Assembly: GCA_944390455.1 (NCBI GenBank)
Contig: CALXPU010000007.1
Location: forward strand, 356 to 64,355
DNA: 64,000 nt
Origin: an uncultured Alphaproteobacteria bacterium
GTDB lineage: Bacteria > Pseudomonadota > Alphaproteobacteria > RF32 > CAG-239
Direction: 5' to 3'
The position numbers were made by a program, and so were the translations under genes. Of this stretch, positions 10,734 to 31,510 are shown in pieces; position 1 is the stretch's first letter; the number at the start of each line of letters is the position of its first letter. A model generated the notes under the pieces. That model made no database searches, had not been told where the DNA came from, and saw only the letters and a list, made by a program, of their open reading frames with translations.

Positions 10734-10748
10734 ATCTTATCTATATTA

Positions 10749-11951
10749 CTAAAATTTGCTCCATTTATCAAAATAATGATTTAAGCGAATTCCATTAAGG
10801 CTCATTAATGCAACAAACATTGTCAAAAATAATAAGAAGTATTGCAAAATTTCAAAATTTCCATAAAGACCAAACATCAAGAGCATAGTATAACTGACAA
10901 TTCGCCCTAAGCCTAGAAATAGCTCTCTAATTACAAAATACTCATTTTTATATTCAATAACTTCCGGAAGATTAGCGACATTAAACATATTAATATCAAC
11001 AATAACACGCATAAACTGAGTAACGACAATAAAACAAAAATTATAAAAAATAAAACTAACTTTATTTGGAACAAAAATAAATATCAGTACCGAAGATATA
11101 ACCAAGACAGCAGCCAACATTAAAATCTTTACAAAATGATGATATTTACAACAACGACCAAACCAAAAATTAAGAACAATGGTAATTGCATAAAAAGCTG
11201 AACTAATCAATCCCAACTTAAAATCTGTTTTGAATAAATAAATAGTATAAAGCGTAATCAAAGTTCCTAAAGTTCCATCAATCGTCATACCTCGACAAAA
11301 CTCTATTTTATAAAGCTGTCGAACATACACAAGATTTTTAGTTTTTTGCCAAAAGGTTTTTATATCCATCGGCGGAAGTTCTTTTCGTGCAGGAGCTTTA
11401 ATTTGACTAAATAAAATAAATTCAAAAACCGATAAAAAAGCTAAAAAAGCCACAGTTTTGAAATAAGAATCAAAAGTAAGGAAAAAACCTAAAATAAGCG
11501 GAGATGCTACACGAATTATATTTTTCAGACTTTCTAAATATCCCTTGAAAGTAATCATTTTTGAAGCAGGTACATTATCTGCCACAATCAAATTAAATGG
11601 GAATGCCTTACAAGACATAATGATACCAAAAACAATACCGCAAAATGGAATATAACTGATTATATCATCTTGCAAATAAATAAAGAACATAAAGCCAATA
11701 AAGGTCGTAATAATCCCCAACTGATACATTAACAACCTATTGCCACGTTTAATCCAATTTCCGGTTAAATACGCCAAAATTGCTACAAACATATAACAAG
11801 TAAGATGATAAATACTAATATCTGTTACACTTTCTTCTGTCTTTCTGAGCAAAAAAGACACCATAAATGTACCAAGAAAGATATCATAAATCTTATTTAT
11901 GCAATTAGTAATAATGAGTAGATAGGTGTTTTTGTTTGTTTTTTCAGACAT
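10749..11951 (-). CDS. MFS-type polytopic transporter
   Basis: 400 aa, about 12 hydrophobic helices, no soluble domain. Family assignment from topology only. Confidence 0.5.
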   Translation of the reverse strand: MSEKTNKNTYLLIITNCINKIYDIFLGTFMVSFLLRKTEESVTDISIYHLTCYMFVAILAYLTGNWIKRGNRLLMYQLGIITTFIGFMFFIYLQDDIISYIPFCGIVFGIIMSCKAFPFNLIVADNVPASKMITFKGYLESLKNIIRVASPLILGFFLTFDSYFKTVAFLAFLSVFEFILFSQIKAPARKELPPMDIKTFWQKTKNLVYVRQLYKIEFCRGMTIDGTLGTLITLYTIYLFKTDFKLGLISSAFYAITIVLNFWFGRCCKYHHFVKILMLAAVLVISSVLIFIFVPNKVSFIFYNFCFIVVTQFMRVIVDINMFNVANLPEVIEYKNEYFVIRELFLGLGRIVSYTMLLMFGLYGNFEILQYFLLFLTMFVALMSLNGIRLNHYFDKWSKF

Positions 11952-12061
11952 TTATTAGTTATTCCGGTTAAGTTCTTCTTGATAGCGTCGGATAATTTTA
12001 TTCATTAGCGGTTTGCAAAAACGGCAAGAGTTCATTTTATTTTCCTGAAGTTGTTTAGTTA

Positions 12062-13541: not shown

Positions 13542-14933
13542 ATGCGTAAATATCTTGAATTCTTCCGTGTGGAAGCAAAATCTTTATTAAAAAATTTCCA
13601 GAAAAATGAACAAAGTGCGGTTGCCAGATGTGCAGAAGTTTTTGGCGATAAAAAAGATTTATCGTTGATGAATATGCAACATGTGGTGGCTAAAGAATAT
13701 GGTTTTGACAATTGGAACGCTTTGAATAAAGCTGAAAATTGGCAACTTGCCGAAGTGCTGATAAAATCTAAAAATCAAACATTAGCTATGCCTCTTTATG
13801 CCGATGAAAAAAAGGGGAATGTTTATTCTCGGGCTGAACGCTATGAAGTTGGTTTGATTAAAAGCCGTGCGGGAGTGGATTTAGAAAATTTTATTCAAAC
13901 ATCACCGAATGGTTATGCGTCTCCTTTTTTGCAATTAGAAAGATTTGATTTGTCTGATTATGATTTATCAAAAATGAATCCGTTGTTTGTGTCTTTTGAT
14001 GAGTATACACGTTGGCCGGAAGATGTTGCTAAATTGCCTCAAAACTTTAATCCGCAAAAATTTATGGAGCAAAGAAAAAATCCAGGGCTTGGTATTCGTC
14101 GTTTGCATCGGCAAAATCTTGTTGGTCAGGGGCGTGCGATGGCTGTTATTGATGGTTTTCTATTGAGTGATCATTTGGAATATCATGAAAATTTGAAAGG
14201 TTATGAGAGAATTTGTTCAGATGATTTGGGACATGGTGCTAATGGTGGTGCGTTGGTGTCTGCCCTTGTGGGGAAAACTTGTGGAGTAGCCCCGTTTGCC
14301 GATGTTTATTATTTTTCGGCGCAACAGATGGAAAATAATCATCGGACGCAGCGATATTATGCGCAAGCGTTGCAGAAAATTTGTGATATTCATGAGAAAC
14401 TTCTGCAAAATGGGAAAAACGGTATTGATACGGTTTGCATTTTATGGGGAATTACAAGCCCTGTTTTTCAGCAGGATGACGGTGTATCTGAGATGAAAGA
14501 CGCTCTGGAACGAGCTCATAGCTTAAATATTTGGGTTAATAGCGGTGACTTGAAGTTTGAGGGTAAACTGTGGTCTGAAGGACGGATACATTGTACTTAT
14601 AGCGGAGATTTAGATAATCCGATGGATTATGAAGTGATGCCTAACGCTCCCAAAATTCCTTTAGAAGTTAGTGAATTTTGGAAAAACAGATTATGTTTTC
14701 CGGCTGGTGGTCGCACAGTGACGAGAAATGACAGACTAGATGCTTATGCATTTTCGGCTCCGGGGTTTTATCTCAAGCCTTATGAATGCGGATTGTTTGT
14801 ATTGGCAAGGTGTATCAAAAATGATTTGACACCTGAGGAGTTTTGGAAGTTTTCTCTTGAAACAGGAGATTATCGTGCCGGTATGGGGGTGATTGTTAAT
14901 CCGCAAAAATTGATTGATGCTTTAAGAAAATAA
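13542..14933 (+). CDS. hypothetical protein with subtilase-like Asp/His/Ser motif order (possible S8-like peptidase); alternative start 13410
   Basis: AMAVIDGF…LGHGANGGALVSAL…GITSPVF resemble the D/H/S blocks of S8 peptidases but are degenerate. ATG 13542 has an AAGGA SD, while 13410 has none. Confidence 0.4.
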   Translation: MRKYLEFFRVEAKSLLKNFQKNEQSAVARCAEVFGDKKDLSLMNMQHVVAKEYGFDNWNALNKAENWQLAEVLIKSKNQTLAMPLYADEKKGNVYSRAERYEVGLIKSRAGVDLENFIQTSPNGYASPFLQLERFDLSDYDLSKMNPLFVSFDEYTRWPEDVAKLPQNFNPQKFMEQRKNPGLGIRRLHRQNLVGQGRAMAVIDGFLLSDHLEYHENLKGYERICSDDLGHGANGGALVSALVGKTCGVAPFADVYYFSAQQMENNHRTQRYYAQALQKICDIHEKLLQNGKNGIDTVCILWGITSPVFQQDDGVSEMKDALERAHSLNIWVNSGDLKFEGKLWSEGRIHCTYSGDLDNPMDYEVMPNAPKIPLEVSEFWKNRLCFPAGGRTVTRNDRLDAYAFSAPGFYLKPYECGLFVLARCIKNDLTPEEFWKFSLETGDYRAGMGVIVNPQKLIDALRK

Positions 14934-14991
14934 TGTTATACAAGGGAGAGTGAGTGATTGCTCTCCTTTTTTATGATGTAGAGGAATTTGA

Positions 14992-15471
14992 ATGAGTAAG
15001 AATATTGATATTTTAGTAGCAAATGAAGAAGATGCAGAAGATATTGCCCGCCTTTCTTATCAAGTGGGAAAAATGCATGATGATGCGTTGCCGGATTATT
15101 TTAAACCGACACCCGAAGAAGAACATTTGCGGATTATTCAGAATATGCTGAAAGATGAAAATGCCGTTATTTTTAAAGCAGTAGAGGGTGGTAAAATTTG
15201 CGGGTTTATGTGTATGCTTATTCAAGAAAAATCACGCAATGGTTATGTACATTCCAAAGTTGCTTATATTTATAACTTTGGGGTTGATGAAGCTATGCGA
15301 AGCCGTGGAATTGGCGGAAGGATGCTACAAACAGCCGAGAGCTTTTTACAAACGAAAGGTGTTGAAGCTGTGGAGCTCAGTGTCTTTATGTTTAATCAAC
15401 GAGCTTTGACGTTTTATGAAAAAAACGGATATCGTACATTGGATGTTAATTTGCAGAAAATTTTGAAGTAA
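14992..15471 (+). CDS. GNAT family N-acetyltransferase
   Basis: 159 aa. …YIYNFGVDEAMRSRGIGGRMLQ… is acetyl-CoA binding motif A (R/Q-x-x-G-x-G/A). Confidence 0.75.
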   Translation: MSKNIDILVANEEDAEDIARLSYQVGKMHDDALPDYFKPTPEEEHLRIIQNMLKDENAVIFKAVEGGKICGFMCMLIQEKSRNGYVHSKVAYIYNFGVDEAMRSRGIGGRMLQTAESFLQTKGVEAVELSVFMFNQRALTFYEKNGYRTLDVNLQKILK

Positions 15472-15653
15472 AAATATCTATCAGCAATAAAAAAGGGGGC
15501 GAAGTATCGCACCCTTGCTTTATGCTTTTATTATAAAGAGGTAATTCTTTTTTGTCAAGTTCTTTATTTGCAGTTTTGCTGAAATAAGTTATTGATTTTA
15601 CTGTTTATTTTTATGTATTTTCAAGTTCTCATCAAATTTTGGAGGACTTTTTT

Positions 15654-17603
15654 ATGCAAGAACAGAGAGTTTTTCTTGAAAAGTATAATTTTGTAAAATT
15701 TGAATTAGAAAGAATTAAGTCTTTATGGGGATTGAAAAAGGAGCATGCAGAGCAGAAAAGTAGTTATGATATTTCAATTGGGGAAATTATTAAGGAGATT
15801 TTTTCAGAACTTAAATTGTATGCGTTTAAGCCTTGTAAAAAATTGTTATTAGCAATGGCTATATGTGGGGTGTTGAGTGGGATAACCCCTTATTTAAGAA
15901 TGCTTTATATGGGGGAACTTCCCGAACTTTTAAACGGAACAACCAAGGCTATTATTATTTTTTCTTGCTTTATGGCAATGAGTGAACTTAATGGTTATTT
16001 ATTATCAATTTTTTCTACGCGTTCCAGATTTATTCAAGATGAAATGATGGATTTATATGATAATTCTGTGCGGGCGAAAAATTATGTTGAAATTTTGCAT
16101 AAACCCAGAGCCTTATTTAATGTTAACGGTGTGGGGGGATTGCTTGCTATGGCTGAATCTATATTTAGGTATAAACGCTTTATTTTGGATAGATTGTTCA
16201 TTTCTTATAAAGAGTTTATTTCTTTAGTTGTTTGTACGGCTAGTTTGTTTGCTATTGTTCCGCAGTTGGCGTTGTTTATTTTGTTGTTGCAATTTATTTC
16301 AATGGAGTTTGCTCTTTATAATAATAAGTTTTTTAGAAGAGTTGATGAGCGGTTTCGTTTGTTTTCGGCGAAAGTTTATCGCGAAAACGGACAAATCAGC
16401 AGTCTTGCTTCATTGGTGCAAAGTGCTAATAAGGTGGAAAAAGAAAGTAAACGTGTTTATGCCAGGCTTATGCGTAGTTCCGCTAAATTGCGGTTAAAAA
16501 TCTTTAACCGTTTAATGGGGGAAGAAAGTATTCGCCTAATTTTGGATGCGCTTTTAGCTATTGCGGTTTGCTATGTGGCTATTCGGGATATTATTCAAAC
16601 CGGTGATATCGGACGATTGGCTTTAATTTCCGGTGCGGCGATGCAGATGCAAGGACGTTGGCAGAGTGTATTTCGTTTTTATTTTAATGTGGACGAGTAT
16701 AAAAATTTGGTTGCGGATACCAGAAAACGTATGCAACTTCCTAAAGTTTTAGAAAGAGTTACCGGTAATCATCATTTAAGTGTGGCGGATAATTTTATTC
16801 GCTTGGAAAATGTTAGTTTTGCGTATCCGGCTCTTAAACGTATGGAAGAAATAGGCTATCTAACGGAGATTAAATACGGTGCTACGGTTTTAGAGAATGT
16901 ATCGCTTGATATTCGTGCGGGAGGCGTTACTGTTGTGGCCGGAACTTCAGGGCAGGGTAAATCGACATTAATGAGGCTTATTCGACATGATTATGATGTG
17001 CAACAAGGTAAAGTCTTTATCGGAAGTCAGAATGTTTGTGATTTGCCAGATGAGGAAATTAACAAGCATATTGCTTTTATTGGGCAGAGTGTGCAGTTTT
17101 TTGATGCGTCTATTCGTCGTAATCTTACTTATTTGAGTGATGTAACGGATGAAAAACGTTTGCATGAGGTTTTGGATGCAGTTGGATTAACCGAAGATAT
17201 TGCTAAGTTTGAAGAGGGGCTTGACTATAAAATCGGAATTAATGGGAATAAACTTTCCGGTGGTCAACGACAGAGATTGGCTTTGGCGCGAACTTTATTA
17301 ACCAATCGTCCGATTGTGATTATGGATGAGCCAACAACCGGATTGGATCAGGTTTTGAGCTTTCAGGTGATGAAATCTCTTAAAGAATTGGCAAAGCACA
17401 AAACGGTATTGCTGGTTACACATAATCCAACTGAAATTGCTTTGGCGGATAGGGTGCTGATTATCAAAGATAAACATGTTGTTGCGGATGGGGAACCGTT
17501 GCACCTGGTGACACATTCGGAATTTTTGAAATCGGCAATGACAAAGCAAGATGTGTTGAGTAAACGAGAATTATTTATTGCGCATTGTTTGAAGGTTGCG
17601 TAA
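15654..17603 (+). CDS. ABC exporter, fused permease/ATPase, atypical (paralog of 20689..22956)
   Basis: C-terminal NBD with Walker A GTSGQGKST, signature LSGGQRQRLALAR, Walker B IVIMDEPTTGLD and H-loop VTHNP. N-terminal about 5-6 TM helices plus 70-aa soluble leader. GGAGG SD 8 nt before ATG 15654, whereas the track ORF starts at TTG 15639. Confidence 0.8.
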   Translation: MQEQRVFLEKYNFVKFELERIKSLWGLKKEHAEQKSSYDISIGEIIKEIFSELKLYAFKPCKKLLLAMAICGVLSGITPYLRMLYMGELPELLNGTTKAIIIFSCFMAMSELNGYLLSIFSTRSRFIQDEMMDLYDNSVRAKNYVEILHKPRALFNVNGVGGLLAMAESIFRYKRFILDRLFISYKEFISLVVCTASLFAIVPQLALFILLLQFISMEFALYNNKFFRRVDERFRLFSAKVYRENGQISSLASLVQSANKVEKESKRVYARLMRSSAKLRLKIFNRLMGEESIRLILDALLAIAVCYVAIRDIIQTGDIGRLALISGAAMQMQGRWQSVFRFYFNVDEYKNLVADTRKRMQLPKVLERVTGNHHLSVADNFIRLENVSFAYPALKRMEEIGYLTEIKYGATVLENVSLDIRAGGVTVVAGTSGQGKSTLMRLIRHDYDVQQGKVFIGSQNVCDLPDEEINKHIAFIGQSVQFFDASIRRNLTYLSDVTDEKRLHEVLDAVGLTEDIAKFEEGLDYKIGINGNKLSGGQRQRLALARTLLTNRPIVIMDEPTTGLDQVLSFQVMKSLKELAKHKTVLLVTHNPTEIALADRVLIIKDKHVVADGEPLHLVTHSEFLKSAMTKQDVLSKRELFIAHCLKVA

Positions 17604-17641
17604 TATTCTCTAAATTATTTTTTATTTAGAGGGGAAATGAA

Positions 17642-18325
17642 ATGTCCGGAATTGTTGAAAAAGCATTGTTATTTGCTAAAGAATGTCATGCAGGAGATAA
17701 TTCCGGACATGATTTTGAGCATATTTTGCGGGTGATGGCTAATGCCGAAAAGATTTTGATGGAAGAGCCTCTGGCCGATGCTGAAGCTGTACGTGTGGCG
17801 GTGGCTTTGCATGATGTTGATGATTACAAATTAGGTTCTGACGGTGCTCGGGCTAAAAGTTTTTTATCTGAAATCGGCGCTCAAGAAGATTTTGCTAGAA
17901 AAGTATTGGATATCGTTAGTTCTATCGGTTTTTCTAAATCGGGTAGTCATCCAAATTTTCAGATGATTGAGCAGGCGATTGTATCTGATGCGGATAAATT
18001 GGATGCGGTTGGAGCGATTGGAGTTTGTCGTACAGCTATGTATTCGGCGGCGACAAAACGTCCGCTCTTTAATGAGCAAATTTTTCCGGATGAAAATTTA
18101 ACACCAGAACAATATCAAAACAAAAATCGGGCGACAAACCACGCTATTAACCATTTTTTTGATAAATTGCTGAAACTTAAAGGTGCGATGCAGACAAAAG
18201 TCGGTAAAATGGAGGCGGAAAAACGCCATTTGTTTATGATTGCGTTTTTAAGAGAATTTTTTGATGAAGTGCGAGCTGATGAGTGGCAAGAATATTTGGA
18301 TAAATTCTTAAAACAAATTGCTTAG
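17642..18325 (+). CDS. HD-domain phosphohydrolase
   Basis: H…HD motif: FEHILRV … VALHDVDDYK … DADKLDAVG. Confidence 0.7.
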   Translation: MSGIVEKALLFAKECHAGDNSGHDFEHILRVMANAEKILMEEPLADAEAVRVAVALHDVDDYKLGSDGARAKSFLSEIGAQEDFARKVLDIVSSIGFSKSGSHPNFQMIEQAIVSDADKLDAVGAIGVCRTAMYSAATKRPLFNEQIFPDENLTPEQYQNKNRATNHAINHFFDKLLKLKGAMQTKVGKMEAEKRHLFMIAFLREFFDEVRADEWQEYLDKFLKQIA

Positions 18326-18352
18326 TTTTCTTTCTTTTTTCATGGAATAGTA

Positions 18353-18381
18353 TTGACCTTAGACAAAAAATATGGTATTAT
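18353..18381 (+). promoter_or_regulatory. sigma70-like promoter TTGACC-N17-TATTAT
   Basis: Seen in sequence about 150 nt upstream of the 18534 ORF. Confidence 0.45.
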
Positions 18382-18533
18382 CTTCTTGTTTACCGTATTA
18401 TTGTTTCTATAGATTTGAACGTTCTTTAGAGTATTTGCTTTAGGGAGTGATTTGGGTTTTGGACTTTAATTGGTGAGCCGTTAAGGGGAAAATCTTCTTA
18501 ATGTATTTTGTTTTTTTTTAAATTTTTTTAACC

Positions 18534-20144
18534 ATGAGACAAAATGTTTTTGTGCGGATTTTTGCCGCAATCATGAGAGTGTGTTTTCCGCTTATGGCGG
18601 TTAAGTACTTCACCAAGAAAACCAACAAACACGCTGAGTTGTTTTTGCCGAGCGAGGCAAAACAGCTTAAAGCAATTGAAAAGCTGGATTTAGACACCGA
18701 CCAGATACGAGCGCGTGTATGGTCTCTTCAGGTCAAAGTTGCGCGATTGCAACAGAGACACAATGACCTGATTCAGGAGATAAAGACTGAACAGGAGTTT
18801 TCCGCTCTTGTAGAGCGTGCTCATGTAGATATTGTTGCGCAAGCAATGAAGTTCTACACCCCGACACAAGAAATGGCTCTGCGTCTTCTGTCTCAATTCG
18901 GTCTGGATGCGGTTGAGCTGATTAATAAAGCTCCGGCGGCGTTTGATGGGCTTAAGGCCAGCGACATCTTGAGTGTTAAGCCAAATGAGGTTTGCGCCCC
19001 TGATAGTCCTCGTTGGGCTTTTGCAGAGGCTCTGGTCTCTAAGCGTTCGTCTTGGGCGCTTAAGTTTTTGGATGAACTTCGCAAGATGCCTCCGCAAAGA
19101 CTTGGCGAGCTGGGGAAAGCTAAATTTAACTTCTTTTTCAAATTCGCGTATGAGGCGAAGGAGAACGTGGCATTTTTGATGCCATATATGGCGGTTTTCT
19201 TCCCCGAGCTTTATGCTCAGGTGAGAGCGAATTTTTTCTTATATAAGGAATTCGCGCCATATATCACAAAAATGTTGCCTGCGAAGTTGAGATACTTGGA
19301 TAAAGGGAGATATAGTTTTCTCTCCAAGGGGTTTTCTCAGATTTCGGTGGAAGGGCAGCTTGATGAAGTCGGAGATGCCTATGCTTGGCTTAGTATTGCC
19401 TATTATAGGATGAATGAGCCGGCGGTTTATGAGCTTATCATTTCCAAGATGAGCGATATTAAGCCGATGGTGTCTGAGTCAATTTACAGTCAGCTTCTTG
19501 ATAGACTGATTGCATTGGCGAATTGTCCGGCGGATGTTTCTCGTCTGCTAAGTCTGGCTGATGACAAACGGAAGCAGGTTCTCTACCATAAAATGGTGGA
19601 GAAAAAATATGCAGTACTTTTGGCTGCTCAATATCCGTTCTCTTCATGGGAGGATAAAGAGCTAATCAAAAGTGCTTTACGTATTGTCATTACCGACAAT
19701 CATTTTCCTTTGGCAAAAATGCACGAACTTCCTGAGGATTTGCAGGAATTTGCAACTTACCAAATGGAAGTATCTGCTCAGATTGCTGCTTTAAAAAGTG
19801 ATATCTTCAAAAATGTAGGGTATCATTTGCTTCCTGAGGTAGAAATCTATCTGGTGCTGATGGATCCGCGGTACTCCTTGAAGTATCAGAAACTCTATGT
19901 TGATGAATTTAAATTGTCTGAAAAGGCATTTAATGCTTTGATACATAGAGAAACTGTTAAACTTCAAGATCAGGTGGTTTTTCCTGATGTTTTGGTTGGC
20001 AAATATGCAGCCAAATGGGGACTGACGGATGAGCAGTATCAAGCATTACTGCAGACACCGATGAAGAAATATACCCTTCAGTGGAAGGAGTATATTAAGA
20101 AACCGGAAGTTTCACATGTTTATCATAACGAAACAGAAGGGTAA
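18534..20144 (+). CDS. hypothetical alpha-helical protein (536 aa), compositionally foreign
   Basis: Long ORF with markedly higher GC and GCG/CTG-rich codon usage than neighbours. No recognisable motifs. Followed by a strong terminator. Confidence 0.55.
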   Translation: MRQNVFVRIFAAIMRVCFPLMAVKYFTKKTNKHAELFLPSEAKQLKAIEKLDLDTDQIRARVWSLQVKVARLQQRHNDLIQEIKTEQEFSALVERAHVDIVAQAMKFYTPTQEMALRLLSQFGLDAVELINKAPAAFDGLKASDILSVKPNEVCAPDSPRWAFAEALVSKRSSWALKFLDELRKMPPQRLGELGKAKFNFFFKFAYEAKENVAFLMPYMAVFFPELYAQVRANFFLYKEFAPYITKMLPAKLRYLDKGRYSFLSKGFSQISVEGQLDEVGDAYAWLSIAYYRMNEPAVYELIISKMSDIKPMVSESIYSQLLDRLIALANCPADVSRLLSLADDKRKQVLYHKMVEKKYAVLLAAQYPFSSWEDKELIKSALRIVITDNHFPLAKMHELPEDLQEFATYQMEVSAQIAALKSDIFKNVGYHLLPEVEIYLVLMDPRYSLKYQKLYVDEFKLSEKAFNALIHRETVKLQDQVVFPDVLVGKYAAKWGLTDEQYQALLQTPMKKYTLQWKEYIKKPEVSHVYHNETEG

Positions 20145-20160
20145 ACTTTAAAGAACAATT

Positions 20161-20196
20161 ATATGGGGTGACGTGAGTCATCCCATATTTTTTTGT
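20161..20196 (+). terminator. rho-independent terminator
   Basis: atatggggtgac-gtga-gtcatcccatat 12-bp stem followed by TTTTTTT. Confidence 0.75.
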
Positions 20197-20270
20197 CTTA
20201 TTATAAATTAGTTGTTGTATTTTTCTATTTTTTATATATCTTTTATTTTATATACAAATTTCTTTAGAAC

Positions 20271-20516
20271 TTGGAGCAAGCTATGCTAGATAGAGTTGAT
20301 GCTTTAGATGTAAAACAGTTTCGGGGGCGAAGCGTTTTTTATTACCAGTCTATTCGGCCGTCTATATACAAAGATAATACGTTTAAACGTGGGTATGGTA
20401 ATGATATGTGTTTTGTGGAAGAAAGAACTCAACAAAATGGATATAAAAATGCACGGGCCAGAGTTATTGATGGTGGTGTAGGACGGTTGACCGCATTGCC
20501 ACCGATTTATTGGTAA
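20271..20516 (+). CDS. small hypothetical protein (81 aa)
   Basis: ORF only. Moderate GC. No motif support. Confidence 0.25.
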   Translation: MEQAMLDRVDALDVKQFRGRSVFYYQSIRPSIYKDNTFKRGYGNDMCFVEERTQQNGYKNARARVIDGGVGRLTALPPIYW

Positions 20517-20688
20517 GGTGTTTGTTGTTGCCTTTTGATGGATGAGTATAGCTTTTTGTGACTTGCGTATTGTTGCTTTGAAATTTTTGTTTTATTGACC
20601 TTTTGAGGTCTTTTTTTGTGCTTGTTTTATGTGGTTTTTTGTGGTAAAATCTCTCTAATAGATGCCTAAATGTTAGGGAGATTTGAAA

Positions 20689-22956
20689 ATGGCTCAAGAG
20701 AAAACGAAAGAAAAAAAATCAAATAAAATTCCTAATTTTGCGGAATATGAACGTGAGCGCCTTAAAAATTTGGCAAGTGAAGCGAGGAAAGCTGCTCAAG
20801 AACTCAAATCTGCCGGACAGAAAATAGGAAAAGAAGTTTTGGATGCTCCGGAAAAAAAAGTTAAAGAGAAGGGAACACTTAAAACATCTTGGGAGGTTTT
20901 TAAGGAAGCCTGGGAAAAAACTGGTAAAGATTTTAGAAAATCAGTTGGCTATAAAATGGGAGAATCTGTTTTTCAGGGATTGTTACCATATTGTCAGAAT
21001 TTGTTATTTGGTTCACTTTCGGGGATTGTTGCCGGTACAAGCGGGGCAACAGCTAAATTCTTTGGAGCGGCAGCTCTTAATGTTGCACGACAAAGATTGG
21101 GGGATTTCTGCCGATTTAAATCTAAAATGGCAACGATTGTTTTAAATGATACGCATGCTAATGCCGCTTCTAGTTCTATCTATAAGGATATTCTTCATAA
21201 ACCGCGTCCGTATTTTAAAGATAATGCTCCAGCATCTTTGGGAGGTTTGACATCAGAGATTGTTTCGGCTAAAAATACTTTGCTAAATAAATCAGTAGAA
21301 TGTATGTCTAAAGTGATTGTATTTGGTATTAGTTCTGCTAGTTTAGTGGCTGTTGATCCGATGCTTGCTGCAGGGGTTTTGGGCGTGACTGTGGTTACGG
21401 CAGAATTTGGCGGATATATGAATAAAGTTTATCGTAAACTCAATAGTAAAATGCGTTCTTTTTCTCATAAAATCTCTAAAGAAAATAGTGATTCAATTAA
21501 AAATACACCACTTGTCCAAGATACTAATCGGGTTGAAGTGGAAACAAAGCAAATGGAAAATCGCTTAAATAAAGCTTCTAAAGTTACACAGAAGATTACA
21601 TATGCTAAGAGTAAAGCTTATCTGAAAATGAGTATGGCTATTAATATCGGTATGGAAGGATTAATTATGGCGGCAGCTTTTGCTGATGTGGTTAAAACCG
21701 GAGATATCGGCCGGTTTGCTCTGATTAGCACGGCTTCGTGGCAGATGATGAGCTCTGGGAATATGCTTTCGGAATTTTGGAATGAAATGCAGGCGGGAAC
21801 GCATAGACTTATTGATGCTTCTAAAAAATTGATTACACCAAAAGAACTTGAACGTGTTACAGGTAAAGAAAAATTAACCGAAAGGGATACTAAAATTAGT
21901 GTGCGAAAAGTTAATTTTGCATATCCGCAAATTAAAGATGTTACCGATATGAGCTTGGTTGAGGCCATGGATCGAGAAGGCGAGATTAAAAGAGGCGAAA
22001 ATGTGCTTAAAGATTTAAGTGTTGAGTTTGATAAAGGTTGTTTAACGGCTGTAGTTGGTACTTCAGGTAATGGCAAATCCACGTTGATGAGCCTTATTCG
22101 TCATGATTATGATGCTCAGTCGGGGCAAATATTTATCGGAAATAAGGAAATTCGTGAATTATCTGATGATGAACTTAATGCGCATATTGCGTTTGTGGAT
22201 CAAAATGTACACTTTTTTGATGAAAGCGTGGGGTATAATCTTAAATATTTTAAGCCTGAAGCTACAGATGAAGAACTTATGCAGGCATGCGAAAAAGCAG
22301 GATTTAATCGTGATATTCAGAAGTTTAATGATGGTCTTTCTCATAAAATCGGGCAAGATGGAGCTAAACTTTCTGGTGGACAAAGACAACGTTTGGCGCT
22401 GGCTCGTGTCTTTTTAACCGATAAACCGATAGTGATCATGGATGAACCGACAACAGGTCTTGATCCAAATCTTAGTCTTAAAATTATGAAGTCTCTTAAA
22501 GATATGGCTCAAGATAAAACGGTGATTATGGTGACACATAATCCAACTGAAGTTGCGCTTTCTGATAGAGTGGTTGTGATTGAAAAAGGTGAAATTGCTG
22601 CGGACGGAAAGCCGATGGATTTGATTAAAACCAGTGAGTTTTTGCGTAATGTCTTAACTAAAGATGATATTAAAAACAAAAATAAGCTTTATCAAACCAG
22701 TATTAATGGGGTTAATCCGATGCAGGAGGCTGCAACTGTGCTTAATGAAGAAGCTAACGGTAAAGTTTTGAGCGATATTGAAAGGGCGGAGAAAAGAAAA
22801 CTTTTGGAAGCGCATAAGAGAGCTTATGTTGGGGTTCGCAAGAAAACGCTTGAAAATCAACGTCGCAAGGAAGGCAAACCTTTACCAGAAAAGAAACAGA
22901 GACAACCTCTTAATCCGCCATCAGCTGTATTAAATCGTGGTGGGGCGGAGATTTAA
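20689..22956 (+). CDS. ABC exporter, fused permease/ATPase with long K/E-rich N- and C-terminal tails (paralog of 15654..17603)
   Basis: NBD GTSGNGKST…LSGGQRQRLALARV…IVIMDEPTTGLD…VTHNP. SD agggag 8 nt before ATG 20689. Extended -10 TGgTAAAAT at about 20643-20651. Confidence 0.8.
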   Translation: MAQEKTKEKKSNKIPNFAEYERERLKNLASEARKAAQELKSAGQKIGKEVLDAPEKKVKEKGTLKTSWEVFKEAWEKTGKDFRKSVGYKMGESVFQGLLPYCQNLLFGSLSGIVAGTSGATAKFFGAAALNVARQRLGDFCRFKSKMATIVLNDTHANAASSSIYKDILHKPRPYFKDNAPASLGGLTSEIVSAKNTLLNKSVECMSKVIVFGISSASLVAVDPMLAAGVLGVTVVTAEFGGYMNKVYRKLNSKMRSFSHKISKENSDSIKNTPLVQDTNRVEVETKQMENRLNKASKVTQKITYAKSKAYLKMSMAINIGMEGLIMAAAFADVVKTGDIGRFALISTASWQMMSSGNMLSEFWNEMQAGTHRLIDASKKLITPKELERVTGKEKLTERDTKISVRKVNFAYPQIKDVTDMSLVEAMDREGEIKRGENVLKDLSVEFDKGCLTAVVGTSGNGKSTLMSLIRHDYDAQSGQIFIGNKEIRELSDDELNAHIAFVDQNVHFFDESVGYNLKYFKPEATDEELMQACEKAGFNRDIQKFNDGLSHKIGQDGAKLSGGQRQRLALARVFLTDKPIVIMDEPTTGLDPNLSLKIMKSLKDMAQDKTVIMVTHNPTEVALSDRVVVIEKGEIAADGKPMDLIKTSEFLRNVLTKDDIKNKNKLYQTSINGVNPMQEAATVLNEEANGKVLSDIERAEKRKLLEAHKRAYVGVRKKTLENQRRKEGKPLPEKKQRQPLNPPSAVLNRGGAEI

Positions 22957-22988
22957 TAATAGCTTATACTTTAAGGTTAGGGGCTTGG

Positions 22989-24734
22989 TTATGATTGGAT
23001 AAAGCCGTCTGACTGCAAATTGAATAAATGGTAAAATTTACCGGATTTGTTTTTGAGCAATTCTTGTGGTGCTCCACTTTCTACGATTTTGCCGTGTTCC
23101 AGCACTACTATTCTATCCATGTTTCTTAAAGTTGATAAGCGGTGGGCAATCGCTATAACGGTTTTGTTTTTCATGATGTTTTGTAGAGCCTTTTGGATGG
23201 CTGTTTCTGATTCGCTATCTAAAGCGGAAGTAGCTTCATCTAAAATTAAAATCGGAGTGTCTTTTAGGATAGCTGAGGCTATGGCTATTCTTTGTCTTTC
23301 GCCGCCGGATACCTTAACTCCTCTTTCTCCGACTACGCTTTGATACCCTTTAGGCATTTTTAAGATTGTGTCGTGAATTTGAGCTAGTTTGGCTGCTTTG
23401 TAAACATCTTCATCGGAGGCTTTAGGGTTTGAAAAGCGGATGTTATTTATTATAGAACGATTGAATAAGGTCGGCTCTTGCGGGATAAGGGCTATATGAC
23501 GGTGTAGCGAACTTTGTGTTATCTTGGCAATGTTTTGCTCAGAAATCTGAATTTCTCCTCCTTTTATGTCATAGGCGCGGAGGATTAAATTGATTAGAGT
23601 TGATTTGCCTGAGCCAGATAAACCAACGATACCGACTTTTTCGTTTGCTTTTATTTCTAGATTGAAATCTTCAAATAATGGGGCTTTGTTTTCATAGGCA
23701 AAGCTCATATTTTTTATGGAAATATTGGGCTTGCTTATTTTTAGTTGCTTGGCGTTGGGGGCGTCATTGACTTCTATCGGTTTATAAATGATATTTATAG
23801 CATCTTCTAAACCGCCTAGGTTTTGTTGATAGCGTATGATAAAATCTCCTATTCTATCTATCGGAGATAAAAGTAAATGAATGTATGTCAAGGCAATCAG
23901 AACTTGGCTGATATTGAGATTTTTTGCATGCCAGAAATAAACTAAAATCAATAGAGATATGACGCGTAAGACCATCAGCGATAAGATATTAAAGCTGTTG
24001 GATATGCCTGTTTCTTGTCCTTTTTTGAGGTAACTTCGGACGACTTTTTTCAGTGTTTTGCCTAAGTAAGCCTTTTCATGCAATACAGCGCCGCAGTTTT
24101 TTACTAGGCGGGCATTGGCGATACTGTCTACGATAATTCCGGCAGCTTCCGACTCTAATTGAGCGTTTTCTCTGGAGATTGGTTTTAGGTTTTTGCAGTG
24201 GTAGTAGTTAAAGAAACTTGTTATTACGCAAAAAAAGGTAATGGATGTGGCTAAGCCTTTGTCAACGCTGAATAATATCGGTAAGGCAACTGCATAGGGG
24301 ATAATGACTGCTTCCAATACGCCTTTAAAACTCCAGCAGAGATTTATGGTTTGAAGGACAAGTTGAATAACTTTATTAGATATTTTTCCGGACATTTCTT
24401 CGGTAAAATATGAAGTGGAGTGTTTATGTGTGTACTTGAATGCGTCTTTGTAAATATTGCGTTTTAGAAAAATATCCATGCGAAATTCAAAAATGGTGCG
24501 TAGGCCGTCGCAAATATTTGAGCCAAAATGTAGGGCAGCGTATATGGCAACATAGGTTATAGAAGTGCTGGTTATAATTTGCGTTGGATTTTCAACAATG
24601 TAACCGAACAACGATGCAATGTAGTAATTGTCTAGGTAAATAAATACACGACTGAGCCCAAATAAACCAAAGGTGGCGATGGTGTACAATTTAATTCGTC
24701 TTAAGTATTTGAAAATAAATTTTATTGCGGTCAT
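22989..24734 (-). CDS. ABC transporter ATP-binding/permease protein, MsbA-like exporter (tandem paralog 1 of 3)
   Basis: 6-TM TMD plus NBD (GLSGSGKST, VSGGERQRIAIA, ILILDEATSALD, IAHRL). Confidence 0.9.
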   Translation of the reverse strand: MTAIKFIFKYLRRIKLYTIATFGLFGLSRVFIYLDNYYIASLFGYIVENPTQIITSTSITYVAIYAALHFGSNICDGLRTIFEFRMDIFLKRNIYKDAFKYTHKHSTSYFTEEMSGKISNKVIQLVLQTINLCWSFKGVLEAVIIPYAVALPILFSVDKGLATSITFFCVITSFFNYYHCKNLKPISRENAQLESEAAGIIVDSIANARLVKNCGAVLHEKAYLGKTLKKVVRSYLKKGQETGISNSFNILSLMVLRVISLLILVYFWHAKNLNISQVLIALTYIHLLLSPIDRIGDFIIRYQQNLGGLEDAINIIYKPIEVNDAPNAKQLKISKPNISIKNMSFAYENKAPLFEDFNLEIKANEKVGIVGLSGSGKSTLINLILRAYDIKGGEIQISEQNIAKITQSSLHRHIALIPQEPTLFNRSIINNIRFSNPKASDEDVYKAAKLAQIHDTILKMPKGYQSVVGERGVKVSGGERQRIAIASAILKDTPILILDEATSALDSESETAIQKALQNIMKNKTVIAIAHRLSTLRNMDRIVVLEHGKIVESGAPQELLKNKSGKFYHLFNLQSDGFIQS

Positions 24735-26488
24735 GCTTCTTCTCCATAAGAAAGATAGCCATTGTTTTGGAGCTGATAAAGTTTGTAGAATGTGCCGGAT
24801 TTGTTTTTGAGTAGTTCATCTATGGAACCTTCTTCAATTATCTTGCCATTTTCTAAGACGATTATTCTATCCATGCTTCTTAAGGTTGATAAACGGTGAG
24901 CAATGGCGATAACGGTTTTATCTTTGATGATATTTTGTAATGCCTTTTCTATCATTATTTCCGCTTCACTGTCTAAGGCCGATGTTGCTTCATCCAAAAT
25001 TAAAATCGGAGCATCTTTTAGGATAGCAGAGGCTATGGCTATTCTTTGTCTTTCGCCGCCGGATACCTTAACGCCTCTTTCTCCGACTACGCTTTGATAC
25101 CCTTTAGGCATTTTTAAAATCGTGTCGTGAATTTGAGCTAGTTTGGCTGCTTTGTAAACATCTTCATCAGATGCTTTGGGGTTTGAAAAGCGGATGTTAT
25201 TCATTATGGAGCGGTTAAATAAACTGGGTTCTTGTGGAATTAAGGCTATGTGATGGCGCAACGAACTTTGTGTCACTTCTGTAATATTTTGCTCGGAAAT
25301 CTTAATTTCTCCCCCTTTTATATCATAGGCGCGAAGAATTAAATTGATTAGAGTGGATTTGCCGGAGCCTGATAAACCAACGATACCGACTTTCTCGTTT
25401 GCTTTTATTTCTAGATTGAAATCTTCAAACAATGGGGCTTTGTTTTCATAAGCAAAGCTCATATTTTTGATAGAGATATTGGGGGTGTTTATTTTTAATT
25501 GTTTAGCGTTGGGAGCATCATTTATTTCTATCGGTTTATAGATGACATTTATAGCATCCTCCAAAGAGCCTGTGTCTTGTAAATAGCGAAGAAATGCAGC
25601 TCCTATTTGATTTATGGGGGATAATGCTAACTGAATGTAAGTTAAGGCAATCAGAACTTGGCTGATGTTGAGATTTTTTGTATGCCAGAAGTAAACTAAA
25701 ATCAGTAAAGATATGACACGCAAGACCATTAGGGATGTAGTATTGAAACTGATTGATATTCCTCTTTCGTGTCCTTGTTTTAAATGGCTTTTGATGACTT
25801 TTTTAAGAGCTTTACCTAAGTAAGCCTTTTCATGCAATATGGCACCGCAATTTTTAACTAGGCGAGCATTGGCAATGCTATCCACGATAATTCCGGTGGC
25901 TTCTGACTCTAATTTTGCATTTTCTTTGGATATCGGTTTTAGAATCTTGCTGTGCCAACAGTTGAGGAGACTTGTTATTATGCAAAAAAAGATGATGGAT
26001 GTAGCTAAACCTTTGTCAATACTAAACAATATCGGTAGGGCGACAGCATAAGGAATAATGACGATTTCAAGTATTATTTTAAAACACCCACAAAAATATA
26101 TTGAACTATCTACAAGTTGAATAATTTTATCAGATACTTTTCCGGACATTTCTTCCGTAAAATAAGAAGAGGAGTGTTTATGCGTATGTTTGAATGCATC
26201 TTTATAAATATTGCGTTTTAAGAAAATATCCATGCGAAGTTCTGTAAAGGCACGAATACTATCGATTACGTTTGAACTAAAGTGCAAGAGAGTATATATG
26301 ATAATATAGGTTAAAGAAGTGTTGGTTATTATTTGTGTCGGATTTTCGGCTATATAACCGAATAATGAGGCTATATAATAATTGTCCAGATAAATGAGAG
26401 TGCGTTCAAGGCTATATAAACCAAGTGTTGCGATGGTGTAGAGCTTGATTTGCTTAAAATATTTGAAAATAAATTTTATTGCAGTCAT
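24731..26488 (-). CDS. ABC transporter ATP-binding/permease protein, MsbA-like exporter (tandem paralog 2; mosaic)
   Basis: Same architecture. ATGA overlap with paralog 1. Middle section near-identical to paralog 1, last about 85 codons identical to paralog 3. Confidence 0.9.
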   Translation of the reverse strand: MTAIKFIFKYFKQIKLYTIATLGLYSLERTLIYLDNYYIASLFGYIAENPTQIITNTSLTYIIIYTLLHFSSNVIDSIRAFTELRMDIFLKRNIYKDAFKHTHKHSSSYFTEEMSGKVSDKIIQLVDSSIYFCGCFKIILEIVIIPYAVALPILFSIDKGLATSIIFFCIITSLLNCWHSKILKPISKENAKLESEATGIIVDSIANARLVKNCGAILHEKAYLGKALKKVIKSHLKQGHERGISISFNTTSLMVLRVISLLILVYFWHTKNLNISQVLIALTYIQLALSPINQIGAAFLRYLQDTGSLEDAINVIYKPIEINDAPNAKQLKINTPNISIKNMSFAYENKAPLFEDFNLEIKANEKVGIVGLSGSGKSTLINLILRAYDIKGGEIKISEQNITEVTQSSLRHHIALIPQEPSLFNRSIMNNIRFSNPKASDEDVYKAAKLAQIHDTILKMPKGYQSVVGERGVKVSGGERQRIAIASAILKDAPILILDEATSALDSEAEIMIEKALQNIIKDKTVIAIAHRLSTLRSMDRIIVLENGKIIEEGSIDELLKNKSGTFYKLYQLQNNGYLSYGEEA

Positions 26489-28245
26489 GCTTCTTCTCCA
26501 TAAGAAAGATAGCCATTATTTTGGAGCTGATAAAGTTTATAGAATGTACCGGATTTGTTTTTGAGTAGTTCATCAATGGGACCTTCTTCAATTATCTTGC
26601 CATTTTCTAAGACAATTATTCTATCCATGCTTCTTAATGTAGAAAGTCTATGAGCGATGGCAATCACGGTTTTATCTTTGATGATATTTTGTAATGCCTT
26701 TTCTATCATTATTTCCGCTTCACTGTCTAAGGCCGATGTTGCTTCATCCAAAATTAAAATCGGAGCATTTTGTAAAATAGCGCGGGCAATAGCAATGCGT
26801 TGTCTTTCTCCACCGGAAAGCATTGTCCCTCTTTCACCGACGACGCTATTGTATCCGTGTGGTAAATTCATAATGGTTTTATCAATTTGTGCTAATTGAG
26901 CGGCTTGGCGGATTTGCTCTTCGCTCGCTTGTGAGTTGGTTATACGCAAATTTTCCAAGATACTACGATTAAATAAGGCGGTATCTTGTGAGATAACGGC
27001 AATGTTTTTGTGGTGGGAGCGGAAAGTTAAGTCTTTGATATTTGTTTTGTTTAGCAATATTTCTCCGCTGTCTACATCATAAGCGCGAAGTAATAAGTTA
27101 ATCAAGGTGGATTTTCCTGAGCCGGAATGTCCGACTACTCCAATCTTTTCTCCGGCTTTGATATGTAGATTTAGGTTTTCAAATATCGGTTTGCCTTTGA
27201 TGTATGCAAAGTTTACGTTTTTGAATATTATTTCAGCTTTTGTTGGGCGTATGTTGATGGCGTTTTCTTTTTCTTTGATGTCAATGGGTTGGTTTAGGGT
27301 TGAGAAATTAGCACGAATTCCTCCCAGCTGATCAGATATAAATTGGCAGTAGTTGTTTATGCCCATGGTGGCTAAAACTAAGTTGACCAAGGTGGTGTAA
27401 ACGTAAAACAGATTATCCAGAGCGATATTGTCTTTTTGTGCAAAATATAAGATTAAAAAGATTCCGGAGGTTAAGAATACGGTATCTATTGCATGAAAGG
27501 TAAAACGCGAAACAATTTGATAACGTCCTTGTTCGGCTATGCGTAAAAGGGCTTGTTTTAAGCTTTTGTAAAAATAAAGTTGTTCGCTGAAAAATGATCC
27601 GCTGTATTTGACTAAATTGGCATTGGCAATGCTGTCTACTAAAATGCCTTTGGCTATGTTTTCATAATTTACACGATTTCGGCCTAAATCAAAAAAGTGA
27701 CGATTTACTTTATATACGGCGAAAAAATATGGAATGTTTATTGCAAATAATAGGGCGCTTAGTGATGGACTGAATGTTGCTATAATGGAATAAGATACGA
27801 TTAAAATTCCCATTGGACGGATGAGTAAAAAACAGGTATCCGAGAATAATTGTGTTAAACTCTGGCATAATCCTGTTAGTGCCGATGATATACGACCACT
27901 CATTTCATCATCAAAGTAACGAACGGAATGAGCATGAATTTTGGTGAAAATGTCTGTTACTAAATGACTTAAAAATGTTTGGGAAAAGGCGTCTTTTATA
28001 TATGTGGCGTAGTAGCCGTTTACGAGGGCGCGGATAAGGTAATATCCGACTAATATCAATAAAATTGTGAAACATTGATTGAGCGCTTCGGTTGAGTTTT
28101 TTATTTCAAAGCAACCAACAAGGCGGCTGATAAGCCATGTTTCTAATGGTAAAATGATGCAGGTCAAAATGAATGTAATGCAAAAAAGAATAAACAGTTT
28201 TTTACATTTTTTAAGATTTTTTAATATAAGCGTTCTAATATCCAT
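26485..28245 (-). CDS. ABC transporter ATP-binding/permease protein, MsbA-like exporter (tandem paralog 3)
   Basis: TMD plus NBD (GHSGSGKST, LSGGERQRIAIARA, ILILDEATSALD). ATGA overlap with paralog 2. Confidence 0.9.
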   Translation of the reverse strand: MDIRTLILKNLKKCKKLFILFCITFILTCIILPLETWLISRLVGCFEIKNSTEALNQCFTILLILVGYYLIRALVNGYYATYIKDAFSQTFLSHLVTDIFTKIHAHSVRYFDDEMSGRISSALTGLCQSLTQLFSDTCFLLIRPMGILIVSYSIIATFSPSLSALLFAINIPYFFAVYKVNRHFFDLGRNRVNYENIAKGILVDSIANANLVKYSGSFFSEQLYFYKSLKQALLRIAEQGRYQIVSRFTFHAIDTVFLTSGIFLILYFAQKDNIALDNLFYVYTTLVNLVLATMGINNYCQFISDQLGGIRANFSTLNQPIDIKEKENAINIRPTKAEIIFKNVNFAYIKGKPIFENLNLHIKAGEKIGVVGHSGSGKSTLINLLLRAYDVDSGEILLNKTNIKDLTFRSHHKNIAVISQDTALFNRSILENLRITNSQASEEQIRQAAQLAQIDKTIMNLPHGYNSVVGERGTMLSGGERQRIAIARAILQNAPILILDEATSALDSEAEIMIEKALQNIIKDKTVIAIAHRLSTLRSMDRIIVLENGKIIEEGPIDELLKNKSGTFYKLYQLQNNGYLSYGEEA

Positions 28246-28327
28246 AATAAATAGCCTTAAAAATTTGCGATGTGTGTATAATAGTCAAAAAAATATTTTT
28301 GTCAAGTAAAAAATTAAAAGGAGCTGT

Positions 28328-29344
28328 TTGATGAAGAAAATTGCCATTTTGGTTGTTTTAGTTTTAACGCTCGTGGGAGCTTTTTGGTTTTTAAATCGCT
28401 TGGATTATTCTAAAGTTGCGATTGTTTTACCTTCTTCCGAACGCGCCTCATCTCCTTATTACTATCAAAAAGATGGGGATTTTTTCTTGGCGGATGATTT
28501 AAAACAGGGGTTGCAGAAATTAGGGTACAAAGTTGAGTATAGGTTTCGCGAAAATTATGATGATTTAAATTTGAGTGATATCGGCAATGTGATTTATTTT
28601 AAGGGATATTATAATTTTGAGCATTTGCCGGATGCCGAAAATAAAGACGACGGGCGTAAACGTGTTCTCTATCTCTATTATGTGGAAGGTTTGCATCCTG
28701 AAATATTAAACGAAGTTGATGTGGTGGCTTGTGCTTCGCAAAAGTTTATTAAAGATATGGTTGCTCCATTAGGGGTGGCTACTGCATATATTCCGCAATT
28801 TACTAATCCGGATAGATTTAAGCCGACAGCTAAAGAAATGGATAAGGCTTATACGGTGTTGTTTGTCGGTTCTGACCATTCGGGATTTGGACGCAAAAGT
28901 GTTGATTATGCCGTTTTGGCAGATGCTAACTTGAGTGTTTTTGGCAAGTTTTGGGAAAAAAGTTTGCAACCGGATGTATTAAAAGGGAACTTTATTGAGA
29001 ATAATGACTTGTATCGTTATTATGCAAGTGCGGATATTGTTCTTAATGATCATCGGGAAGATATGAGCTATTATGGATTTATTTCTAACCGAATTTTTGA
29101 TGTGACAGCGTCTGGCGGTTTTGTGCTTACGGATTATTTACCTGAAATTGAGGCAGTTTATGGCGATAGTGTCGCAACTTATAAAGACTATTATGAATTT
29201 AAAGAAAAGTTAGAGTATTATTTGGCTCATCCAGAAGAACGCGCAGTGATGGCTCAGAAAGCTCGTGAGATTACTTTGAAGAACTTTTCTAATGTTAAAA
29301 TTGCGGAAATGTTTGACGCTCTCTTTAAAAATATAAAAAAATGA
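28328..29344 (+). CDS. glycosyltransferase, CgeB-like (DUF3880 / Glyco_trans_1_2-type) with N-terminal membrane anchor
   Basis: N-terminal TM. C-terminal …NRIFDVTASGGFVLTDY… is typical of CgeB-family GT1-like domains. Confidence 0.5.
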   Translation: MMKKIAILVVLVLTLVGAFWFLNRLDYSKVAIVLPSSERASSPYYYQKDGDFFLADDLKQGLQKLGYKVEYRFRENYDDLNLSDIGNVIYFKGYYNFEHLPDAENKDDGRKRVLYLYYVEGLHPEILNEVDVVACASQKFIKDMVAPLGVATAYIPQFTNPDRFKPTAKEMDKAYTVLFVGSDHSGFGRKSVDYAVLADANLSVFGKFWEKSLQPDVLKGNFIENNDLYRYYASADIVLNDHREDMSYYGFISNRIFDVTASGGFVLTDYLPEIEAVYGDSVATYKDYYEFKEKLEYYLAHPEERAVMAQKAREITLKNFSNVKIAEMFDALFKNIKK

Positions 29345-29435: not shown

Positions 29436-29726
29436 ATGCAAGTAAAGCCTTTACGCGAGAACGTTTTAATTAAACGCGTTGAAGAAGAAAATAAAACCGC
29501 AGGTGGTATTATCCTGCCTGATACAGCGAAAGAAAAGCCCAGCGAGGGAGTTGTTATTGCTGCCGGTGAAGGGCCGAGAACTCCTGATGGAAAAATCTTG
29601 CCGATGAGTGTTAAAGTTGGTGACCATATTTTGTTTAGCAAATGGTCCGGAACTGAAGTTAAAATTGATGGCGAGCCTCATTTGATTATCAAAGAGGGTG
29701 ATATTTTGGCTGTTGTGGAAAGATAA
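29436..29726 (+). CDS. groES: co-chaperonin GroES
   Basis: [29 protein letters not shown] is canonical GroES, 96 aa. Confidence 0.96.
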
Positions 29727-29730
29727 TTAG

Positions 29731-31392
<1,662 letters not shown>

Positions 31393-31510
31393 TCTTTTTG
31401 TTGCTTATTTGACAGCCGGATTTTTTCCGGCTGTTTTTGTTTGTATAAACTTAATTTTAATTATTGTCTGTTATCCTAGAACACAACAGGTGTTTTTTAG
31501 GATATTTGAA

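Follow-up and report, generated by a model that had tools for sequence, protein, structure and literature searches.

We analysed a stretch of 64,000 nucleotides (the window; all positions are its own) from an uncultured Alphaproteobacteria bacterium, in which five genes for ATP-binding cassette (ABC) half-transporters, each joining a transmembrane domain (TMD) to a nucleotide-binding domain (NBD), lie within 12.6 kb. This block probably consists of two unrelated and independent sets of exporters of ordinary fold (type IV, ABCB/MsbA-like) lying side by side. One set, termed M, comprises a core and putatively heterodimeric pair (M1 and M3) together with a chimeric tandem duplicate (M2), and the other, termed A, is an adjoining pair of diverged, lineage-specific exporters (A1 and A2); transporter genes this dense need not form one machine. 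The ABC exporter mechanism is as already known, and the sole unusual element is the association of the A exporters with a pseudo-subtilase and with GNAT acetyltransferases.

Identity and kinship of the five half-transporters

The five intact open reading frames (ORFs) span positions 15654-28245, from the ATG of A1 to the start of M1, exactly as delimited in a first-pass annotation made from the sequence alone. They are as follows:

15654-17603, + strand: A1, 649 aa, PF00005, clade-restricted A family
20683-22956, + strand: A2, 755-757 aa, PF00005, A family
22989-24734, - strand: M3, PF00664 and PF00005, the conserved partner of M1
24731-26488, - strand: M2, a tandem copy that varies between strains; codons 1 to ~480 resemble M3 and the 3' end resembles M1
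26485-28245, - strand: M1, a type IV half-transporter and the first gene of the M operon

The Pfam domain scan covered 40 window ORFs, the ribosomal-protein ORFs at 1-9200 being left out. The ABC_tran domain (PF00005) was found in all five proteins with E-values of 1e-28 to 1e-35, and PF00664 scored above its cut-off in M1, M2 and M3. A2 matched PF00664 weakly, at 23 bits for a cut-off of 28, and A1 gave no PF00664 match. The canonical Walker A motif, Q-loop, LSGGQ/VSGGE signature, Walker B glutamate and H-loop were kept in all five proteins. A1 and A2 shared 38% identity, and the M proteins shared 42-81% (81% between M2 and M3, and 42-47% between M1 and either of them), whereas A and M proteins shared ~30%, largely in the NBD. 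By this comparison, A1/A2 and M1/M2/M3 are two families, as had been proposed.

The earlier reading had also reported no partner of a type I secretion system (T1SS), no C39 peptidase and no obvious biosynthetic gene, and we likewise found none among the 40 ORFs, which contained no HlyD/membrane fusion protein (MFP), TolC/outer membrane efflux protein (OEP) or C39 domain. HlyD and OEP were also absent from the called genes of related loci on public contigs (loci of relatives are designated below by L and a number). The curated libraries compared were Pfam, NCBIfam and PADLOC, and structures were compared by AlphaFold2 (AF2) modelling and Foldseek. In support of the earlier reading, none of the five proteins was assigned to a curated family, and the cut-offs for MsbA, NdvA, CydDC, HlyB and bacteriocin exporters were reached by none of the five; in addition, the orthologous blocks of the relatives showed no linkage to established loci for lipid A or drug efflux. 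Since type IV half-transporters of this kind generally act as exporters or flippases, we infer export as the direction of transport.

M1 and M3 form a core, syntenic pair

The three M genes overlap successively by 4 nt and are divergent from a glycosyltransferase (GT) gene. Two features lie upstream of M1:

28278-28305, - strand: promoter-like site upstream of M1 (TTGACA, 16 nt, TATTAT; 11/12 consensus matches, a pattern match only)
28328-29344, + strand: glycosyltransferase with a membrane anchor (PF13524), transcribed away from M1, with groES and groEL after it

M1 orthologues with 44-63% identity were present throughout metagenome-assembled genomes (MAGs) of gut Alphaproteobacteria, and in the whole clade an M3 orthologue immediately followed M1. 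The gene order M3-M1 / GT-groES-groEL-autotransporter-DUF1189 was retained in L014, L077, L078 and L079. In particular, the synteny of M1-M3, GT, groESL and autotransporter was found together with an A block in L077 and without an adjoining A-type gene in L078 and L079. Because the M pair is present without A genes in these last two loci, M1-M3 belong to the core of the clade and are not accessory; they are a core, syntenic pair of an uncultured gut/rumen clade of Alphaproteobacteria. The number of ABC genes was 3 to 5 among close relatives. The earlier description of the block as accessory does not hold for M1-M3; M2 varies between strains, and A1 is absent from L006 and L008.

From the gene organisation, we propose that M1 and M3 are translationally coupled and that their products most likely assemble into a heterodimeric exporter in which both ATP sites are catalytically competent. 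The M substrate may belong to the amphipathic lipids, glycolipids or xenobiotics.

The first-pass annotation had instead taken all five genes for a single candidate export system, specialised for example in lipids, glycoconjugates or peptides that interact with a host. The clustering within 12.6 kb, the GT gene at the flank and the fact that none of the five proteins reached a substrate-specific family cut-off would fit such a system, which we nevertheless consider highly improbable. The A and M families differ in distribution and separate in relatives, with the M pair kept without A genes and A genes found elsewhere in distant relatives, and close relatives can dispense with A1 and with M2. 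Moreover, the two sets are encoded on opposite strands, and two terminator-like hairpins help to separate the transcription units:

14942-14969, + strand: terminator-like hairpin 3' of the pseudo-subtilase gene, with a 12-bp stem followed by a T-run
20161-20188, + strand: terminator-like hairpin 3' of a 536-aa ORF

The hairpins and the promoter-like site of M1 are pattern matches only; they agree with the strand changes in pointing to several transcription units.

M2 is a chimera of M3 and M1 sequence

M2 was present in the window and in L003, L004, L011 and L013, and it was absent from L005-L009, L014, L077 and L078. The gene is M3-like over ~1440 nt and M1-like in the last ~320 nt, where the following tract was located:

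24701-25020, - strand: tract at the 3' end of M2, near-identical to the M1 3' end at 26455-26774, attributable to gene conversion or unequal crossover

In an ungapped comparison and by sliding identity, the 3' tracts of M1 and M2 (~320 nt) were 94-100% identical, while the remainder of the two genes showed 40-68% identity, which bears out the paralogy and recombination noted in the first reading. M2 and M3 were 98% identical in places in the NBD region and 70-80% identical in the TMD. At the nucleotide level, M2 and M3 diverged by ~20%, compared with 0-6% for the M1-like tract.

An unequal crossover between M1 and M3 in their NBD-coding regions would yield the layout of M2 exactly. As the full origin of M2, however, a single unequal crossover was rejected; the chimeric layout fits, but divergence is far lower in the M1-like tract than in the M3-like remainder, and later gene conversion is therefore also needed. 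Judging from its divergence, the M1-like tract of M2 is younger than the rest of the gene or has been repeatedly homogenised. M2 is best read as a recent, strain-variable copy of M3 with its 3' end replaced by M1 sequence, and it is probably an alternative partner for M1 with a diverged membrane domain. The locus is a clear case of paralogue exchange, in which the membrane domain of an exporter was reshaped and its ATPase domain kept constant.

A separate observation concerns L003 and L013, where the middle M gene (about 14070-15806) is nearer to the M3 of the window than to its M2; paralogues were therefore exchanged or re-duplicated between strains.

The M proteins compared with MsbA and other exporters

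The five proteins resemble MsbA in their TMD-NBD architecture, type IV fold and canonical ATPase motifs. MsbA was the best NCBIfam match of M1 and the best Foldseek match of the A1 model. The scores were nonetheless only about half of the NCBIfam equivalog cut-offs: against TIGR02203 (cut-off 602 bits), M1 scored 328, M3 326, M2 306, A2 217 and A1 185 bits, and against PRK11176 (cut-off 867 bits) the five scored 155-290 bits. The M genes further differ from MsbA in their two-gene, heterodimer-type arrangement and in the lack of linkage to lpxK.

In E. coli MsbA, a ring of residues (R78, R148, R296, K299, D41, E149 and D252) contacts the phosphoglucosamines of lipid A, and double Arg mutants are non-functional (PMC8660845). 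We aligned MsbA with 83 M1-like and M3-like proteins and found that R148 was the sole conserved ring residue, with an equivalent kept in 59 of the 61 M1-like proteins; at the 26-28% identity of this alignment, single columns are uncertain. The R78 position was mostly occupied by Gln, and R296, K299, D41 and D252 were not conserved in either M1-like or M3-like proteins.

These data bear on the possibility that M1/M3 is the lipid A or lipopolysaccharide-core flippase of the lineage, that is, a heterodimeric functional MsbA. This role would be consistent with TIGR02203 being the best match of M1, with the presence of the pair in the core of a diderm clade that bears an autotransporter and with the retained R148 equivalent. 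We consider it unlikely, as the scores fall to about half of both cut-offs, five of the ring residues that E. coli requires to transport lipid A (PMC8660845) are not conserved, and no lpxK or other lpx gene was found nearby among the 40 ORFs scanned. On these scores and alignments, the M pair is not a recognisable MsbA.

The cyclic beta-1,2-glucan exporter NdvA/ChvA (PRK13657, TIGR01192), an alphaproteobacterial half-transporter, was the top NCBIfam match of M2 and M3. Their PRK13657 scores (335 bits for M2 and 339 bits for M3) were also far from the cut-off of 733 bits. No ndvB/chvB cyclic glucan synthase was found in the window ORFs scanned, and the only GT beside the M genes belongs to the small PF13524 family.

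The heterodimeric exporters TM287/288, BmrCD, LmrCD and EfrCD are encoded by overlapping gene pairs, with ~580 aa for each subunit, and one of their two ATP sites is usually degenerate. The M genes are similarly tandem, overlapping and of similar size, and TM287/288 was among the Foldseek matches of the A1 model. In contrast to these pairs, all three M proteins conform to the consensus at the Walker B Glu, the H-loop His and the signature.

A T1SS was rejected since the 40 ORFs contained no MFP or outer membrane protein (OMP) and the subfamily cut-offs were not reached; the best score was that of M3 against TIGR01846, at 290 bits, which is below the cut-off (725 bits for TIGR01846, 510 for TIGR01842 and 693 for TIGR03375, representing HlyB, PrtD and LssB, respectively). 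Against the bacteriocin exporter model TIGR01193 (cut-off 524 bits), the five scored 140-237 bits, and the C39 peptidase domain PF03412 was absent from all five ABC proteins.

The A family is an orphan in sequence and ordinary in fold

Full-length homologues of A1 and A2 were found only in gut/rumen Alphaproteobacteria MAGs; the next matches covered the NBD only, and the best of these were fused CydCD proteins. A search with the A1 TMD alone (372 aa) against 1.84 billion proteins, representatives at 50% identity, gave 17 relatives at E<=1e-3. The full-length ones had 648-784 aa, a size like that of the family, and the others were fragments. The A-family profile could be aligned with MsbA over positions 154-636. 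The AF2 model of A1, built from 33 sequences with a predicted local distance difference test (pLDDT) score of 83, showed six helices of 40-55 residues and an NBD, and in Foldseek it matched MsbA, PCAT1, Atm1 and TM287/288 best (TM-scores 0.7-0.85). The model thus suggests that the A1 TMD has diverged past sequence recognition and still has the six-helix type IV exporter fold. The label "atypical" given to the A exporters in the first reading therefore suits their sequence family, which is an orphan, but not the ordinary fold of the A1 model.

A2 aligned with A1 throughout, the fold model having been made for A1 only. Additionally, A2 has a basic C-terminal extension of ~100 aa and an unusually hydrophilic membrane domain. 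It was present in every close relative, and many relatives carried one A gene only. Given these single A genes and the absence of A1 from L006 and L008, a homodimer is the simplest assumption, and the A proteins are probably homodimeric exporters of a lineage-specific substrate.

A1 and A2 resemble the thiol/heme exporter CydDC in their NBDs, for which models of CydC and CydD and fused CydCD proteins gave the highest scores. However, the match was confined to the NBD (26-35% of the query), the TMD sequences were unrelated and no linkage to cydAB was present. The NBD-centred scores against TIGR02857 and TIGR02868 were 190 and 194 bits for A2 and 177 and 165 bits for A1, with cut-offs of 435 and 329 bits, respectively. 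A role in anti-phage defence was also considered and dropped; PADLOC gave generic ABC-ATPase similarity only, and nothing for the other genes.

A pseudo-subtilase and GNAT acetyltransferases recur beside the A genes

In distant relatives, A-type genes were found at other loci, beside pseudo-subtilase and GNAT genes. The corresponding genes and the other neighbours of A1 and A2 in the window are as follows:

13542-14933, + strand: pseudo-subtilase of S8 fold, 463 aa when counted from Met45 of a 507-aa ORF (probable start)
14992-15471, + strand: GNAT acetyltransferase, 159 aa, PF00583 (E 4.6e-19), with the acetyl-CoA motif R-x-x-G-x-G (RSRGIGG)
17642-18325, + strand: HD-domain phosphohydrolase, 227 aa, PF01966, PRK10119-like
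18534-20144, + strand: 536-aa protein with a hydrophobic N-terminus (Kyte-Doolittle peak at residues 5-23)
20283-20516, + strand: 77-aa ORF upstream of A2, with the near-invariant C-terminus TALPP(I/V)YW; a called gene in public contigs

The pseudo-subtilase had no Pfam match of its own, and a sequence search of the PDB also gave nothing. Its distant homologues belong to the PF00082 subtilases and carry signal peptides or lipoboxes. Of the 38 members of the pseudo-subtilase family, none kept the catalytic His, one kept the Ser and 29 kept the Asp, whereas each residue was present in 11 of 11 members of the S8 outgroup. The signal peptide is missing and is replaced by an N-terminal helical domain of ~85 aa with the conserved pattern EAKxLLKxF...LSLMNxQHVIAKEYGF. 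The AF2 model (pLDDT 93.5) matched S8 proteases in Foldseek with E-values of 4e-8 to ~1e-8 and a TM-score of ~0.6 on the target. The protein encoded at 13542-14933 is thus predicted to be a cytoplasmic, catalytically dead pseudo-subtilase. In a hidden Markov model search of the ORFs of the fetched loci, the N-terminal helical domain was found on one other protein only, a 191-aa protein (L016 7070-7645) that adjoins an A-type gene; the idea that the domain is a widespread targeting tag was consequently rejected.

The pseudo-subtilase gene adjoins A-type ABC genes in L003-L011, L013, L018 and L020-L025. Overall, A genes occurred with pseudo-subtilase and/or GNAT genes in at least four arrangements, namely pseudo-S8-GNAT-A1-HD-...-A2, GNATs-small TM protein-A-GNAT, pseudo-S8-A-A and pseudo-S8-A-pseudo-S8-GNAT-A. 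As a gene-neighbourhood observation, the A family with its pseudo-subtilase/GNAT association is undescribed in Pfam, NCBIfam and PADLOC, and the present account is a first one of this very small subfamily of ABC exporters, restricted to uncultured gut/rumen Alphaproteobacteria, and of its recurrent partners. The recurrence suggests the export of a small molecule or peptide modified (acetylated) in the cytoplasm, and the A substrate would then be more hydrophilic than that of the M proteins and possibly acetylated.

Several observations weigh against the reading of two exporter sets with these partners. In L080 and L081, the pseudo-S8 and GNAT genes are paired but no ABC gene accompanies them, and the A-type gene of L026 has neither a pseudo-subtilase nor a GNAT neighbour. 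The close relatives, moreover, are non-independent observations. Dimer composition is read from gene organisation only. For the M set, synteny extends over the whole region in the clade, and the conserved M1-GT adjacency is therefore a weak sign of a functional link.

A stronger form of the association would make the A exporter, the pseudo-subtilase and the GNAT an undescribed export module of gut Alphaproteobacteria for an acetylated peptide or small protein, with the dead subtilase as a receptor or chaperone acting in trans. HlyB carries an inactive C39-like domain, which offers an analogue for such a role. We hold the acetylated-cargo module to be a long shot, and we judge as equally doubtful, with odds well on the low side, a module for handling and exporting peptides or proteins in which the dead subtilase is the receptor or proteins bearing the N-terminal domain are the cargo. 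The three genes are adjacent in several arrangements, the confident model keeps the subtilase fold although the catalytic residues are lost, the N-terminal domain is also present on the unrelated 191-aa protein beside the L016 A-type gene, and A2 has a membrane domain of unusual hydrophilicity, all of which would suit a module. On the other hand, no precursor-peptide candidate was found (in the 77-aa ORF the C-terminus is conserved and the GG motif is not), no MFP or OMP for crossing the outer membrane was present among the scanned ORFs, the N-terminal domain occurs on just one extra protein, and pseudo-subtilase and GNAT also occur together without an ABC gene. If the A module is indeed a functional unit, it would represent a new accessory-protein logic for ABC export.

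The layout of an S8-fold gene beside a type IV exporter gene is reminiscent of the lantibiotic-type exporter LanT with the subtilisin-like leader peptidase LanP and of peptidase-containing ABC transporters (PCATs), and PCAT1 (for A1) and the cyanobactin protease PagA (for the pseudo-subtilase) were among the structural matches. Here, however, the subtilase is predicted to be dead and lacks a signal peptide, no C39 domain or precursor peptide is present, and the only modification enzyme is the GNAT. The 77-aa ORF had no family match, and its GG motif was not conserved in the alignment; a leader peptide is therefore unsupported. With no C39 domain, and with a conserved C-terminus but no conserved double-glycine motif in the sole conserved small ORF, a cluster for a ribosomally synthesised and post-translationally modified peptide (RiPP) or bacteriocin was rejected, and linked small ORFs encoding exported peptides, for which the earlier reading had proposed a search, yielded no candidate.

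Alternatively, the A block could be a loose set for the detoxification of xenobiotics or antibiotics, consisting of the GNAT, the HD hydrolase, a kinase-like P-loop protein, a pump of the major facilitator superfamily (MFS) and ABC efflux. The GNAT weakly matches aminoglycoside acetyltransferase models, genes for an AAA_18/zeta-like kinase and an MFS transporter lie just upstream (10167-11951), and a zeta-toxin-like gene adjoins the module in L020; the record titles, in addition, indicate gut organisms. All of these matches are to generic superfamilies and far under the cut-offs, no resistance determinant was recognised and the pseudo-subtilase is left unexplained, which gives a detoxification set a low probability.

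The remaining neighbours of A2 are of narrower distribution. The HD hydrolase, the 536-aa protein and the 77-aa ORF accompany A2 in the nearer subclade only. The 536-aa protein, which had no Pfam, NCBIfam or PADLOC match, evolves fast, with 75-90% identity where its neighbours have 93-97% and 30-43% where they have 65-75%; it may be surface-exposed.

Genomic setting

The ABC block is flanked by a ribosomal-protein operon (1 to ~9900) and by groES-groEL (29436-31392), and the G+C content of the window is ~37%. No Rfam family or tRNA was found in the window. Proteins of the window were also present on gut-metagenome contigs in ENA, and homologues were found on MAGs from human, mouse and ruminant gut collections, labelled as "uncultured Alphaproteobacteria bacterium", "uncultured Rickettsiales bacterium UMGS1453" or "Acetobacter sp. 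46_36". The literature found for "RF32" consisted of microbiome surveys only, with nothing concerning these genes.

Between the ribosomal operon and the ABC block, a low-GC patch (10001-12000; 0.30 vs ~0.37) with reversed GC skew was observed. It contains two genes, one of which has a parallel in the zeta-toxin-like gene near the A module of L020, and two further genes downstream of groEL keep their position across the clade:

10167-10733, - strand: kinase-like P-loop protein that weakly matches AAA_18 and zeta toxin, within the low-GC patch
10749-11951, - strand: MFS transporter, within the low-GC patch
31337-34906: large autotransporter with a BigA beta-sandwich domain, downstream of groEL
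35779-37320: MORN-repeat protein, downstream of groEL

A second array of paralogues was observed at 47680-53520 on the - strand, where three genes for GtrII-like (PF14264) membrane glucosyltransferases are interspersed with a GT2 gene; this array probably serves the modification of a surface glycan:

47680-49296, - strand: GtrII-like gene (PF14264)
49299-50252, - strand: GT2 gene amid the GtrII-like genes
50331-51890, - strand: GtrII-like gene (PF14264)
51892-53520, - strand: GtrII-like gene (PF14264)

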